A stretch of 48,167 nt of DNA from a virus (lineage: Duplodnaviria; Heunggongvirae; Uroviricota; Caudoviricetes): the IMG/VR virus record IMGVR_UViG_2861053794_000003, positions 1 through 48,167 of that record, one strand, 5' to 3'. Shown piece by piece: positions 6,001-12,000 of the stretch. A program made the position numbers. Every line of letters begins with the position of its first letter. Positions within the stretch are counted from its first letter, which is position 1.

Positions 6001-9000
6001 TCGCTGACGTGATGGTGCGCGTCACCGGCTTCGCCCTCGTCACCTCCACGCCCAGTGCGGTTTCCGCACCGGAAGACTCAAAGCCTTCCGGCGGCGTCTG
6101 CTCCTGCTCCCCGGCACGCCAGACGGCTGTCACGCCATGTATCACGGGATTACCGTCCATATCCGTCAGCGGGGTTTTGTTCACCAGAATACTCTGCAGT
6201 CCCTTCACCGGACCTTCAACCGGCCCTTCACCAATGGCATCAATCACGCTCATCATCTGCGTGGACTTCAGGTTATCCTTTGCCTCACGCGGTGTGTGCC
6301 CCTTGCCGCCCCCCTTACCCATTGCGTCACCCTTTAGTGTCTGATGTCAGTCTCTGTTTATGTACAAAAACAACAGGCACCCCGGAGGGTGCCTGTCTGC
6401 TGAGTGAATAAAATTTCTGAATTTCTTCACACTTCCGGCAATTACCTGTAGCCACCATAATTACGCTGCGTTACTGTTCTTCTGCAAAAAATAACTCCTT
6501 AAAGTTCATCTTCATCGTTTTCCCCACAGTCTGGCCAATACTGTGGGTATTTTTTATGTTTATTCTCACCCCCGACCGATAACCACCACCTGCCCGTCCC
6601 CGCCCTCATCGCGGGTGCTGATGTCCTGGGATATCCGCCGCGACCCCACAAGCATCTCACCATAAGGCACCGGCATCGGGTTACCCTGGGCAATCATGTT
6701 GTCCAGTGAGGAGAAATACGTGTTCCGTTTACCATTATCTGTTGTCGTGGCAGACGGTGTTTTCGCCCTGGGGGTGAGCATCTGCGTGATACCCCCCACC
6801 ATCATGGCCACCCCAAGATTACCGATGACAGCACCAATACCGGTCCAGCTGAACACATATCCCACAACAGCCAGAACAGCACCGGCCACCACCTGAAGAA
6901 CACCGCCGTTTTTTGCCCCCTCCGTCCGGGGCACCAGATGGATAACATCCCCGTCATTCAACGGCTCACATACTCTGGAATGAAGCTCCTGTTCAGATAC
7001 ATCCCTGCCCGCAATGCGTAACTGATACCATCCCTCATACAGTTTCTGCCGGAATCCCGGCACCTGCAGCGACAGGGCACGGATGGCCTCCGCTGCCGTG
7101 TTCACATACAGGCTGATGCGGCGACCAAATCGTTGTAAATCCCCGTGAAGGCAGATACGGACCAGTGGCGGTGACGCCAGACAGAATGCGTTCGTCGTTG
7201 CCATTTTTCAGAATACCTCTCCCGTTTACTCAGTTGTTCAGGTATATGGTGAAGCAGCTCACCATTGCCACAGTAAATGGCAGCATGATTGGGTACCGAT
7301 GAACCAAAACAGCACAGCAGAATATCTCCCGCCTGTGCACCGGACAGGGATACCCGGTAAAAGCCGTTTTCCGCCAGATTGTCCAGATACAGGTTCTGAC
7401 CGTTGCGCCACCAGTCATCCTCACGCGCAAAATCCGGCAGCGTTATCCCCGCCAGATGGTATGCATCCCGGAACAGGGTGTAACAGTCCGTCACACCGTG
7501 TTCAAAACGCCGTCCGGTGAGGTGCGGAACGCAGCGGAAATGATGAATTTCGCCCCGGCAGACCAGCCACCAGGGAATTGCACTTTTTACCTGCAGCCGC
7601 CGGTCCGCCTCGCTCAGCCAGGGCAGACCGCCGGGATGACTGTGGACCAGCGCCACAATCTCCCCCTGCATATCCGCCCGCAGCCAGTCTTCCGGCGCAA
7701 TACGAAAATACGCCTCCGGCTCTGCAGAAATATTCACACACGGTTGATACTGCTCCCCCTCCGGCGTTCTCACCACGAAGCCGCACGACTCCGCTGGCGC
7801 ACACCGCCGTGCATGCGCCAGAATGGCTGATTCAGTCTGTTCCATGATAATCACTGTGAAAGTTTATTGATGGAAAGGAAAAAACCGCCGTTTGCCACAT
7901 TCCCGCGCATTTCACAACCGCGCAGGCACTTGCTGCATTTGTCTTTCCTGATATCCGTGGTGGGTTTGTCGAACTCGTCAGCCACTGCCGGGCCGTTATA
8001 CCCACATTCCTCTCCACGGTAATCCCACGGACAGGTATTGGCCAGCATGATACGACCGGGAAACAGCGCCCCGTCCGTCTCTGCCGGTGTCGCCAGGATA
8101 AAGGTCGCCTTTTCGCAGGTCAGCGCTGACAACTGCTCCACCACCCAGCGATCTGTCAACTCCTGCTCAGGGTCTGCCTCCGGGTTTCCCGCAACAAAAT
8201 TCACGGCATCGAGAAAACGGGCGTACACCCGGCGGCGAACCACCGTGCCCCCGACCAGACTCTGCAAATCCTCCGCCATGCCGGTGACCAGTCCGAACAG
8301 ATTCGAGACAATCAGCGACGGTCGCGCACTGCTGCCCTTGCCGTTCATCTCAAAGCCGCAGCCCTCTATCGGGTATGCCTGATACTGACGCCCCTGCCAG
8401 GTGACAGGCTCGCCCTTTTCATTGAGTTCACCGCAGAAAAAATAGCGTTCGCCCCCCTGCGCCGTCAGGTCGATTTCCCACAGCACCACGCGGGCGGACT
8501 GCGCTGATTTTACTGCCTCGTTCAGGCTCTCCTCATGAATATCCTGCATATGTATCCGCCCATAAAAAAGGGGCGCAGACGCGCCCCGAACAATACGTTC
8601 AGTTTTAAATAAAACCAATAAAGGTAATAACAGAAAATTAAATCAGCATATGCATGGCAATTGCTGATGCAGTGACCAATGAAAACTATGTTTTCATTGA
8701 TACAGACCGCCTGTAAGGGCAGACGGTCTGTATTTATTAACTTATCAGCAATAATCAGAACTGATAAGTCATCCCAACAGCAACGATATTATCTGTCGCA
8801 ATACCGGCTTTCTGGGTAAATTCGCTTTCATCAATCAGGTTAATTTTATAATCAACATAAGTGGACATATTTTTGTTAAAGTAATAAGTCGCACCGACAT
8901 CAATATATTTAACCAGATCCTGGTCGCCATGGTTCACACCACCAACCATAACATCCTGTCCGCGGGACTGCAGATAAGCCAGAGATGGACGCAGGCCAAA

Positions 9001-12000
9001 ATCGAACTGATACTGAGCAACCATTTCAAGGTTTTGTGCTTTATCCGCAACCCCGGTATCACCAAAAGTGGTCATATTCTGGGTTTCGGAATAAATTGCA
9101 GCCAGATACAGATTGTTTGCATCATATTTAAGGCCAGTCCCCCACATCTCAGCATACTTACCTTTTGCAACGCTGCCGGAATCAACTGACACTTCTTTTT
9201 CCGTCACATCCCCCGTTAAAGGATCTTTGACTTCAATAGTTTTGCTACCATTCAGGCCATTAACCTGCTTACCTGTACGATCTGACTTGGTATACGCTGC
9301 CACAAAACCAAAACCATCAAACTCATAGCTGGCAGAGAAACCATATCCATCACCATTAGACTTCTGGAGGTCATCTCGCTCATTTTTTCCCTGATACTGG
9401 GCTGCAAAGTTAAGACCATCCACCAGTCCGAAGAAATCTGTATTGCGGTAAGTCAGCACTCCGGAAGTACGAGCAGTCATGAAGTTATCAGTCTGCGTCC
9501 AGCCATCGCCACCAAATTCTGGCAGAACGTCTGTATATGAACCGACATCATAAGCGATACCATAATTACGCCCGTAATCAATGCTACCTAAATCAGCGAA
9601 TTTCAAACCGGCAAATGCCAGACGGGTTTTATTGCCTGCCGTCCCTTCAGACTCTGCCTTATTACCTGAAAACTGATATTCCCAGTGACCAAAACCTGTC
9701 AGTTGATCATTGATCTGAGTCTCACCTTTAAAACCAAGACGTGCATAGGTCTTATCGCCATCATCACCTTTATCGTCTGAGAAGTAATGGAGAGCAGTTA
9801 CACGACCATAAAGATCCAGCTTATTACCATCTTTATTATAAACTTCTGCTGCCTGAGCCCCCGCAGCAAACATCACTGCCACTGCAACAGCAGAAAGTGC
9901 CACTGTCATTTTTTTCATTTATTTAATCCTTTTTAATCTTTTAACCGAACTGTTCACAACAGAAACTGTCATAAACATTATTTAAAATATTTAAAATAGC
10001 TGCCCATTCAATATTCAAAATGTAAGAGAATGTAAAAAAAAGATCCAGACAACACTTTATAATAAGAAATGAGACAAATAAATATATAAAATAGCAATTT
10101 ATTATTTTAATTATTTTCACTACTTTTATTTATTTTATCCACTTCAGCTTACTACCTGTTTAAACTCAGCACTAAATTCCACACGCAGCATATTTATCCT
10201 GGTGGTCCATTTAGCACACGTCACCTTTATCTGCCTGTACGTATAAGGCGGCGTCCACAGAAACGCCTTCCAGCCCCCGTGCTCTGCCAGAAAATCTTCC
10301 AGCCGTCTGGCATCATCACGGGACACAGACAGCGAAACGTTGTAGATTTTCAGATCCGCATTCAGCCCGGCAGGCGCACGCTGGGAATACCCGTCCCCAA
10401 AACGTACTTCCATAACCGACGGTTGAGAGGTCACTTCCATTCCCGGTTTCACTTTCCAGCGAAATGTTTTCAACGCCCACCTCCGGAGAATATACCACCA
10501 TCACGCATCTGTGCCTGAATCTCATCACGGGCTCCCTTACGGGCCATGTCATAAACCAGCGCCAGTGCCTGCGGACCGATACTGCCGTTCGTGGCATCAT
10601 TCTGAATCACCACATTGTTGTTCTGATTAAAACTTATGCCATCTGCCCGCCGCATCTGAGCCTGGCTTCCGGAACCACCCACATAACCGCCATCCGCATA
10701 CCCCCGCATCAGGCGGTACAGGTTGCCGACACCAATCCGGCTGGTTGCCTCCTTCGTGAACACAAACTCACCACGGTGAACAATCCCCGCAGGCTCATAT
10801 TTTCCGCCAGTGCCGGTGAATCCACCGGTCGCGAAATGAAAGTTCGCTGCCGCAGCCTGAATGGCTGTCCCCGTGGAAGCTGATGCGCCAGCACCACCAA
10901 TGGCTCCCCCGATGGCGCTGCCGATACTCCCGACAATCCCCACCATGGCCTGTTTAATCAGGATTTCCGTCATCATGGACAGCACCGAACGGGTGAAACT
11001 GCGCCAGTTCTGTTCACTGCCGGTCAGCATTGCCGCCATATTCTGTGCAATACCATCAAAGGTCTGCGTTGCAGCACTTTTAACCTGCGAAAAACTGTCC
11101 GTCGCACTTTCCACCCACTCACCCCAGCCAGACTTAAACCCGGCCAGCCAGTCACCGCGCAGCATGTCTTCATCCGCCCATGTCTGTTTCAGTGCCCCGG
11201 TGACCTGTGCCAGCGCCTGCGGATTATCGCGGTACACGTCACGAAGACGCTGCTCTTCAGACTCACGCTTCGCCTGACGATCGGTGAGACCGCGGGCTTT
11301 TGCTCTGATTGCTGCCTGCTTCGCGCTCTGCTGCTGTTCAAACCGCACCGCCTGCTGTGCCAGCTCATTCAGGCGTTTCTGGTGTTCAACCTTGTCGCCC
11401 AGGTCAGCCAGCTGGCGTTTGTATTCCAGCGTCTCATCTTTATGCGCCAGCAGGGATTTCTCCTGTACGGACAGCTGGCGACGTTGTGCCGCCTCCGCCA
11501 GTACCGCGAACTGACTTTCCGCCTTCCATAAATCCCGGCGCTGCTGGCTGATTTTCTCATGCGCACCGCTGTGTTTTTCCAGCGTCCGGAGCTCGGTTTC
11601 AAGCGCCAGCAGGGCAGCATGCGCCTGGTCTTCCTGACGTTCACCGGCTGACACTTTTACACCTGACGACTTCGGTTTTTTCAGCGTCGACTCATAGTCC
11701 TTTTTCGCCGACGCCATCAGCGTGTTGTAATCTGCCTGCAGGATTTTCCCGTCTTTCAGTGCCTTATTCAGTTCCTTCTGGCGGGCGGTATATTTATCCA
11801 GCGGCGTCTGCAGGCGTTCATATGCCTTCTGCGCCTCTTCGGTGTACTTCAGCCGTGAGGCCTCTGATTCAGCCCGATCCCGTGCCGCCATTTCGCTGGC
11901 TTTTTCCAGGTCTGCCTGCAGTGTCGCCGCTGAAAGACCGAGGCGGGCGTTTTCGCGGTCGTCCCATGCGCCGCGCAGATTAGAAAGATACGCTGACGTT

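Follow-up and report, generated by a model that had tools for sequence, protein, structure and literature searches.

A porin gene cassette at the M-L tail gene junction of a lambdoid Escherichia coli prophage, with a structured 3′ untranslated region predicted to pair with ompC and ompF

Why does a lambdoid prophage carry a gene for an outer-membrane porin in the middle of its tail genes? The question is raised by the IMG/VR record IMGVR_UViG_2861053794_000003 (Caudoviricetes), of which positions 1 to 48,167 were analysed; this whole stretch of 48,167 nucleotides is referred to as the window. An earlier inspection of the DNA, here called the sequence-only reading, had described a 1.6-kb cassette between the tail tip genes M and L, and all elements of this cassette were recovered at the described place on the minus strand. 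Judged from its sequence, the cassette is a moron, i.e. a non-phage unit of autonomous expression, and it is oriented like the late operon. Its 3′ untranslated region (3′ UTR) is conserved and highly structured, and a nearly invariant unpaired linker in it is predicted to serve as an antisense seed against the ribosome-binding regions of the host ompC and ompF mRNAs. The best explanation, which we regard as rather probable, is that the unit exchanges the general porins of the host for one supplied by the prophage; porin expression and RNA function are both predictions at this point.

The prophage is a complete lambdoid one, located between potB and potC, with full head, tail and lysis gene sets and all late genes on the minus strand. 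It is also a genuine chromosomal element, as the window is 100% identical to positions 3,079,497–3,127,663 of the chromosome of the canine E. coli strain 317 (NZ_CP023357.1). Along the minus strand the order is H (10470–13052), M, porin, L, and then K, I and J. In two cassette-free relatives, Escherichia phage PhiR12_2 and the IMG/VR contig L211, the stop codon of M overlaps with the start codon of L in the sequence TGATG; L211 shares 98.3% identity with the window on the L-K-I-J side and 92.3% on the H-M side. Because the TGA of M and the ATG of L, overlapping in these empty-site relatives, flank positions 8550–10143 of the window, the insertion can be defined as exactly 1,594 bp. Its base composition drops sharply, with 20.9% GC in the leader, 43.9% in the porin gene and 38% in the 3′ UTR as compared to 50.9% in M, 57.8% in L and 51% in the whole window, in agreement with the very AT-rich upstream region of 225 bp pointed out by the sequence-only reading. 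Of 80 IMG/VR loci, chosen for having the L proteins most similar to that of the window (86–100% identity), 75 have M directly next to L and five have the cassette in between, and no other cargo was seen at this junction; the expectation that the two genes are normally adjacent was thus borne out, also by PhiR12_2 and L211.

The moron concept in the Hendrix/Juhala sense was defined by Hendrix and colleagues, with lom and bor as lambda-type examples. Close relatives may lack the cassette, and M and L are then direct neighbours; it deviates in base composition, and its terminator is clear, while the promoter and the OmpR-like box are predicted from conservation only. As in the lom and bor morons, an extra unit with a promoter-like region, a terminator and deviating base composition encodes an outer-membrane protein, which one would expect the prophage to express. 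Unlike these, the cargo consists of a 16-strand general porin and a putative regulatory RNA, and the unit splits a translationally coupled gene pair and supplies a ribosome-binding site (RBS) of its own. The latter is attributed to a Shine–Dalgarno (SD)-like GGGCGGA that closes the cassette on its right side, 5 nt before the start codon of L, and would replace the translational coupling lost between M and L; cassette-free phages rely on the stop/start overlap instead. The sequence-only reading had correctly seen three hairpins followed by a terminator (8587–8564), but its spacing to L needs correction: rather than 1 nt before the RBS region, the U-tract ends 14 nt before the L ATG, with GGGCGGA in between. 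The cassette shows that cargo can separate two tightly coupled tail genes if it comes with a terminator and a replacement RBS.

The hairpins downstream of the porin gene had been taken for simple terminator structures. This view did not hold, and they turned out to be the most interesting part of the cassette. The 3′ UTR of the window folds into three hairpins and the terminator with a minimum free energy of –75.2 kcal/mol (z = –7.4), a stability that none of 200 shuffled sequences attained. In an alignment of 11 distinct variants, 99.3% of the cells in the three hairpins are paired, compared to 36–46% when the partners were slid against each other, and 0/500 shuffles reached the observed values. 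Compensatory double changes occur in nine pairs of the three hairpins, and G-U alternations at several positions fit the porin-sense RNA strand only. The stems vary, but two unpaired stretches, GGUCACUGC and the linker, are nearly invariant, and the linker follows the pattern GAUUUAAnUUUC.U.UUAUUACCUU.AU across the variants. The 3′ UTR as a whole remains 76–92% identical among variants in which synonymous sites are near saturation. In IMG/VR it was found only together with the porins of the M-L junction, and a partial homologue lies beside an IS66-associated, non-phage porin gene (L012, see below).

The linker is complementary to the leaders of the two major porin mRNAs of the host. In the window, UAAUUUUCUGUUAU-UA-CCUUUAUU is predicted to form 14 + 8 bp with the ompC leader between –36 and –5 (–23.6 kcal/mol), spanning the MicC site and the SD sequence, and to pair with the ompF SD region from –22 to +5 by a 12-bp helix with flanking pairs (–18.9 kcal/mol); the stretch UUAUUACC is the predicted seed of the linker. 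In a second group of linkers (e.g. in L007 and L113), the predicted pairing runs across the SD and AUG of both ompC and ompF. Moreover, the unpaired GGUCACUGC between hairpins 2 and 3 is complementary to ompF +20 to +31 (–16.0 kcal/mol) and to ompC –51 to –41 (–15.1 kcal/mol). When ranked by duplex energy against 483 control translation initiation regions (TIRs), comprising 91 annotated ones and 392 that were called heuristically and chosen for their SD, ompC and ompF outperformed 483/483 for the window and for the O43 prophage L002, and held ranks between 0 and 22 for four other variants. In the same ranking phoE and ompN were found mid-rank and are not predicted as targets. Cofolding, which includes intramolecular structure and also made use of the 392 control TIRs, placed ompF at rank 0–2 and ompC at rank 0–13 for six variants. 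Known pairs behaved similarly when they were subjected to the same procedure as positive controls (MicF–ompF, rank 0; MicC–ompC, rank 0–18). The target leaders are highly stable, with at least 99% conservation in 5,359 (ompC) and 5,078 (ompF) out of 5,426 E. coli genomes.

Table 1. Features of the M-L cassette and its flanks, in the order of transcription; positions refer to the window, and all features are encoded on the minus strand
Feature	Positions	Strand	Basis or remark
Tail tip assembly gene M	10144–10473	–	PF05939, E 1e-37; stop TGA (10144–10146) is the left edge of the insertion
Whole cassette, 1,594 bp	8550–10143	–	Empty-site comparison with L211 and PhiR12_2; GC drop relative to flanks
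AT-rich leader, 225 bp, 20.9% GC; promoter region and 5′ UTR	9919–10143	–	Conserved blocks in 17 distinct aligned upstream regions
OmpR-like box TTTACATTCTCTTACATTTT, a tandem of two TTACAT half-sites at a distance of 10 bp	10017–10036	–	Kept in all variants
Predicted sigma-70 promoter	9984–10011	–	–35 TTGAAT (10006–10011), 16-nt spacer, –10 TATTTT (9984–9989)
Porin coding sequence, 387 aa, including 23-aa signal peptide (9850–9918)	8755–9918	–	RefSeq WP_034172976.1 'porin OmpC'
Hypervariable, indel-rich surface loop L5, residues 214–254, between strands 9 and 10	9157–9279	–	14 distinct M-L porins aligned; AlphaFold 2 pLDDT 63
Conserved structured 3′ UTR, porin stop to L ATG, 205 nt	8550–8754	–	11 distinct sequences aligned (195–212 nt)
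Hairpin 1, 14-bp stem, loop CCUUAC	8700–8733	–	Four pairs changed on both sides
Hairpin 2, 10-bp stem	8675–8701	–	Four pairs changed on both sides
Unpaired GGUCACUGC (8669–8677), including (G)GUCACUGC; possible second seed	8669–8676	–	Invariant in 11/11 variants
Hairpin 3, length variable among variants	8642–8668	–	One compensatory pair; 98.7% of cells paired
Unpaired linker core UAAUUUUCUGUUAUUACCUUUAUUGG, predicted antisense seed	8615–8640	–	25/29 positions invariant in the 11-sequence alignment
Strong intrinsic terminator GGGGCGC-GUCU-GCGCCCC, then U6	8564–8587	–	7-bp all-GC stem, invariant in all variants
Replacement SD-like GGGCGGA for L	8555–8561	–	Read from sequence; GGG(C/U)GGA kept in most variants
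Tail tip gene L, right flank	7851–8549	–	PF05100 and TIGR01600; start agrees with RefSeq

The predicted sites coincide with those of established porin regulators, i.e. the SD/AUG site of MicF on ompF and the leader site of MicC on ompC, and the energies and ranks are comparable. The resemblance extends to the sequence of the regulators themselves: MicF nt 10–40 match the linker of L007 at 27/32 positions (p about 0.001), and MicC nt 22–38 as well as MicF nt 10–34 resemble the linker of the window. Like MicF and MicC, the element has a conserved single-stranded seed complementary to a target TIR, and in micF–ompC and micC–ompN, as in the M-L cassette, regulator and competing porin are encoded in genetic linkage. 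Still, MicF and MicC are separate, divergent genes whereas the M-L element is the 3′ UTR of a porin mRNA, it lacks the remaining parts of the MicF and MicC structures, and, unlike either of the two, the element is predicted to target ompC and ompF both.

Another parallel is IpeX, the 161-nt 3′ UTR of the phage porin genes lc (phage PA-2) and nmpC (DLP12/qsr′). It likewise comprises three hairpins, an AU-rich linker and a GGGGCG...CGCCCC terminator, so that these UTRs span about 160–205 nt, and the IpeX and M-L linkers both contain UUCUGUUAU..UUACC(C)UUUAUU together with predicted pairing to the ompC and ompF leaders. The motif that IpeX shares with the group-1 linkers is supported by p = 0.005–0.03. 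The IpeX linker itself reads CCUUCUGUUAUAUAUUACCCUUUAUUU, both in PA-2 (L004, J02580.1, 2590–2751) and downstream of nmpC in the K-12 prophage DLP12 (L182). This linker, with its segments CCUUCUGUUAUAU and CCUUUAUUU, is predicted to form a duplex with the ompC leader (13 + 9 bp, –26.7 kcal/mol) that is as strong as that of MicC; in the cofold analysis IpeX attains rank 3/392 for both ompC and ompF. IpeX has been listed as a repressor of ompC (PMC3333887, PMC5745476).

The leader of the cassette points to a promoter of its own. The OmpR-like box is the single match to the pattern TTACATNNNNTTACAT in the window, with 0.12 matches expected by chance, and the 16-mer TTTACATTTTGAAACA is common to the variants L110 and L113 and to the ompC promoter region of K-12, where we take it to be the OmpR site C1. 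Downstream of the box, TTGAA(C/T) and TATTTT blocks at a distance of 16–18 bp are conserved across the 17 upstream variants; a scan against the promoter consensus proposed an alternative close to these conservation-based –35 and –10 elements. We infer an OmpR-activated sigma-70 promoter with a 5′ UTR of about 58 nt. The upstream regions of lc and nmpC are unrelated to it; PA-2 shows annotated CRP sites where the M-L cassette has the OmpR-like box. Tandem CTGTCAT Pho boxes (direct repeats with 11-bp spacing) were not found upstream of the porin gene. CTGTCAT-like words near 9949–9975 were rejected as a Pho box; they lie on the wrong strand, at the wrong spacing, and are not kept in other variants.

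That the gene product is a general porin with a signal peptide, as had been described, was readily confirmed. Porin_1 (PF00267) matches with 480.7 bits against a cut-off of 23.7 over profile positions 1–337 of 337, the signal peptide ends in AQA with AE to follow, solved mature porins align from residue 24, and the C-terminus reads VAVGMTYQF. An AlphaFold 2 model shows the expected series of strands at moderate confidence (predicted local distance difference test, pLDDT, of 63). Over aligned columns the porin is 72–73% identical to Lc and NmpC, 65.5% to PhoE, 64% to OmpC and OmpN, and 62% to OmpF. It fails the NCBIfam equivalog model for OmpF (475 vs. a cut-off of 583) and passes the broader, subfamily-level OmpC model NF007841 (508.1 vs. 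484). Neighbour-joining groups the M-L porins in a single clade, with the non-phage L012 as the nearest sequence and Lc/NmpC as the next one out, while OmpC, OmpN, OmpF and PhoE branch elsewhere. By sequence the M-L porins are thus a separate clade, sister to Lc/NmpC and not members of that clade.

The relation to Lc and NmpC is one of lineage and lifestyle, as these are general porins of lambdoid prophages too, but the loci differ. Lc and NmpC genes reside between Q and the holin gene, antisense to late transcription, which agrees with what the sequence-only reading stated on phage-borne porins near the Q/lysis region; the M-L cassette is co-oriented with the late genes. In addition, the M-L porin carries a hypervariable insertion of about 25 residues in loop L5 that Lc and NmpC do not have. 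PA-2 lysogeny is known to replace OmpC by Lc. As for chromosomal OmpC, the likeness comprises the subfamily model, the ompC-related OmpR-box-like element and the fold family; in contrast, the M-L porin shares 64% identity with it, is prophage-encoded and closer to Lc/NmpC, and the true ompC is among the predicted targets of its UTR. A porin of the enteroaggregative E. coli strain 042, Ec042-2121, which has been called 'phylogenetically distinct' (PMC2808357), was considered as well. By our judgement it is probably a chromosomal porin of the YedS type. What was known already are phage porins as such and IpeX; the locus, the orientation, the separate clade with its hypervariable loop, the distinct structured UTR and the explicit pairing model are new.

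The cassette is fixed to its junction. Database relatives of the porin fall into a group with at least 79% identity and a group with at most 70%, separated by a clear gap, and nearly all of the former stem from E. coli, while one stems from Citrobacter farmeri. In 38 fetched loci with porins at least 80% identical, which include the one of C. farmeri, the gene is located upstream of L on the same strand in 38/38, and M is found upstream in all but one, a contig that starts at the porin. These 38 loci hold 14 distinct porins of 364–387 residues on two very different backbones, with lambda-like and HK97-like heads and M types that are 44–49% identical. By contrast, relatives at 61–73% identity are either genes of the NmpC/Lc type, which lie on the opposite strand between Q and the holin gene, or genes that are chromosomal or associated with IS66. 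Species-representative genomes of GTDB yielded no porin above 69% identity, and none of the 50,697 records in a collection of phage isolates shows a porin at the M-L junction. As for complete E. coli genomes, the 3′ UTR was found beside a gene annotated 'porin OmpC' in 111 of 5,426 (about 2%), at 120 places that are all chromosomal, and the cassette is present on 30 IMG/VR contigs, always at the M-L junction. Carriers include many non-O157 Shiga toxin-producing E. coli, and the group closest to the window stems from mice, a dog and humans. The possibility raised with the sequence-only reading, that the arrangement is common and already described, therefore holds in its first half at best: it is moderately common, and our literature search returned no description of either the M-L porin location or the RNA.

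Outside of L5, the ratio of nonsynonymous to synonymous substitutions (dN/dS) between porin variants is 0.04–0.06, while dS reaches 0.65–1.6, which argues for an old and functional gene. The ratio increases to 0.2–0.45 in L5. This loop is about 25 residues longer than in OmpC, OmpF and PhoE, represents an insertion relative to Lc as well, and contains between 0 and 25 extra residues among the variants.

Some loci bear on the history of the cassette. In L011 (4663–5000 of a Logan ERR12716494 contig), the M stop and the cassette are separated by a degenerate repeat of the beginning of L (~95 nt, ATGCAGGATATTCATtaa...) and, next to it, by ~60 nt similar to M of the other type at its 3′ end. Recombination that moved the cassette between backbones appears to have left this scar. 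L012 (3100–5130 of a contig in E. coli GCA_050583865.1) encodes the nearest non-phage porin, with 79% identity over aligned columns, beside an IS66 transposase fragment and a 5′-nucleotidase gene. It has a homologous OmpR-like box and hairpins 1 and 2 of the 3′ UTR, lacks hairpin 3 and differs in the linker. The phage cassette could stem from this locus or, conversely, have given rise to it. Lastly, the IMG/VR contigs L116, L120 and L121 (UViG_643348545 _000009, _000013 and _000008) each show M-porin-L with the same porin variant. As all three are prophage contigs from one isolate genome, several prophages of one strain can hold the cassette.

The following sequence of events would account for the cassette. 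In the lysogen, its own promoter, probably activated by OmpR like that of ompC, would transcribe the phage porin gene, and the terminator would stop this transcript so that L, K, I and J remain silent. The UTR linker, either within the porin mRNA or as a processed 3′ fragment, may then pair with the SD and start regions of the ompC and ompF mRNAs. Repression of ompC and ompF, in the manner of MicC, MicF and IpeX, would let the phage porin take the place of the host porins. In lambda, Q-modified polymerase reads through terminators during late transcription. During lytic growth such a polymerase would likewise pass the terminator of the cassette, and L would be translated from the RBS that the cassette provides; due to the co-orientation with the late genes, porin would also be made at this stage, unlike Lc and NmpC. 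The pay-off would probably lie in the loss of porin receptors for other phages, colicins or the phage itself, together with an altered surface antigen and permeability, although this is speculative. There is precedent for prophage porin expression in a lysogen, as prophage Perceval has an NmpC whose expression exceeds the background 10-fold (PMC9928086). A fuller version of this exchange can be formulated, in which the cassette is a complete device, combining an OmpR-responsive porin with a hypervariable loop and a UTR that occludes the ribosome-binding sites of both OmpC and OmpF, and in which the same UUCUGUUAU..UUACC(C)UUUAUU seed logic is the missing base-pairing mechanism of IpeX in PA-2 and DLP12. 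We put this version forward tentatively, as a possibility that falls somewhat short of being probable.

The most serious competitor assigns the 3′ UTR a role exclusively in cis. Here, the hairpins would guard the porin mRNA from 3′ exonucleases and, together with the terminator, insulate the tail genes from the promoter of the moron, and an AU/U-rich, anti-SD-like stretch would match ompC and ompF by coincidence. Stable hairpins followed by a terminator are indeed a common mRNA-stabilising arrangement, and several observations fit such a role while weighing against a trans-acting RNA. No promoter was found inside the 3′ UTR, so a separate small RNA would need processing; Rfam returned no family on the 3′ UTR (E ≤ 10 for the region, gathering score for the whole window), nor do the MicF and MicC models match; the linker differs between the variant groups (CUGUUAUUACCUUUAUUGG vs. 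CAUUUUAUUACCUUCAUUGC), which shifts the predicted ompC site, and it differs again in L012, the closest non-phage relative. The kinship with IpeX is open to objection as well. Alignment and nhmmer searches of the M-L UTR against the lc 3′ UTR of PA-2 gave hairpins that cannot be aligned and a weak match in the terminator region only, and a review-type text in the secondary literature states that IpeX has no complementarity to ompC or its targets (PMC10690425), a statement with which our computed IpeX–ompC duplex disagrees. Furthermore, the control TIRs are a small set, the target energies derive from simple duplex and cofold models, and promoter, OmpR control and trans-acting RNA alike are predictions. 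H-NS could silence the 21%-GC leader, and a selective benefit to phage or host is speculative; the C-terminus of J, inspected with regard to the phage's own receptor, matches best with long-tailed Shiga toxin (Stx) phages such as BP-4795 (86%), from which no conclusion on the receptor was drawn. Still, we regard the restriction to cis as rather unlikely. A cis stabiliser needs structure and not sequence, yet conservation is highest in the unpaired linker (25/29 positions invariant) and in GGUCACUGC, whereas the stems undergo compensated changes; the complementarity to ompC and ompF exceeds that of 483 real or SD-selected TIRs, with phoE and ompN not hit; and the linker resembles exactly those parts of MicF, MicC and IpeX that bind the targets.

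Other readings concern the porin rather than the RNA. Its role might be mainly lytic, for example if porin made late modified debris or vesicles so that progeny escape trapping, which would render the lysogenic promoter irrelevant. The co-orientation with the late genes, unlike the situation of Lc and NmpC, and the high transcription expected from Q-modified read-through are in line with this idea, but a purely late gene has no need for a terminator and for conserved promoter-like and OmpR-like elements. Lytic and lysogenic roles are not mutually exclusive; as the main role, the lytic one is improbable. That the cassette is found in prophages and prophage-derived contigs but in no record of the phage collection might suggest an inert passenger, a decaying remnant, or a chimeric assembly of a chromosomal porin gene with a prophage. 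With an open reading frame that is intact in 14/14 distinct variants, dN/dS of 0.04–0.06 at dS of up to 1.6, RNA stems that evolve by compensation and a host prophage with full head, tail and lysis gene sets, we consider this highly implausible. The suspicion of an assembly artefact, in particular, is dispelled by the identity of the window with the chromosome of strain 317 and by the same arrangement in 111 complete genomes that are independent of each other, besides the 30 IMG/VR contigs, without any change of junction. Equally remote is a porin that alters permeability and is PhoE-like, as the sequence-only reading had favoured, and hence responsive to phosphate starvation or anion-selective. 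The C-terminal decapeptide is identical to that of PhoE, and phmmer scores against solved structures are similar (PhoE 433, OmpC 442 and OmpF 413 bits), but the match to PhoE is limited to these last ten residues. The porin stays below the cut-off of the NCBIfam PhoE equivalog model (NF007544, 486.2 vs. 599 bits) and sides with Lc/NmpC in identity and in the tree. Lys125 in the constriction loop of PhoE is a determinant of its selectivity for anions and polyphosphate. The corresponding motif FMTK125R is FMT(A/G)R in 14/14 distinct M-L porins, with Ala in the window, and an OmpR-like box is found upstream in place of tandem Pho boxes. As profile scores, identity, tree, Lys125 and the upstream box all disagree with it, the PhoE reading is refuted at the sequence level.

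Exchange of the host porins thus remains the preferred explanation, and its consequences would be considerable. Porins determine the permeability to nutrients and antibiotics, many phages and colicins use them as receptors, and they belong to the major surface antigens. If the explanation is correct, susceptibility to phages and colicins, antibiotic entry and antigenicity would be changed in about 2% of complete E. coli genomes, in which the gene is currently annotated simply as 'porin OmpC'. The 3′ UTR would moreover be a regulator that has spread by horizontal transfer and in which a seed can be identified, and it suggests a concrete pairing model for IpeX, the mechanism of which is called unexplained in the literature consulted.

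Some further features of the prophage were noted apart from the M-L cassette. Four tandem copies of the Rfam small-RNA family STnc100 (RF02076, 77–132 bits) are located at 29563–30678 on the minus strand, in a stretch of ~1.8 kb free of open reading frames. This stretch lies between two tRNA genes (31304–31458) and a gene for a NanS-p-like SASA esterase (27414–29459), i.e. in the position that stx occupies in Stx phages. In the early and nin region, a ParD antitoxin gene is accompanied by a frameshifted RelE/ParE toxin gene (36547–37108). A gene for a toxin of the Hok/Gef family (~2508–2648, minus strand) is found between J and the side tail fibre gene as another small piece of cargo in the tail region, and the O43 prophage L002 has the same gene at this place.

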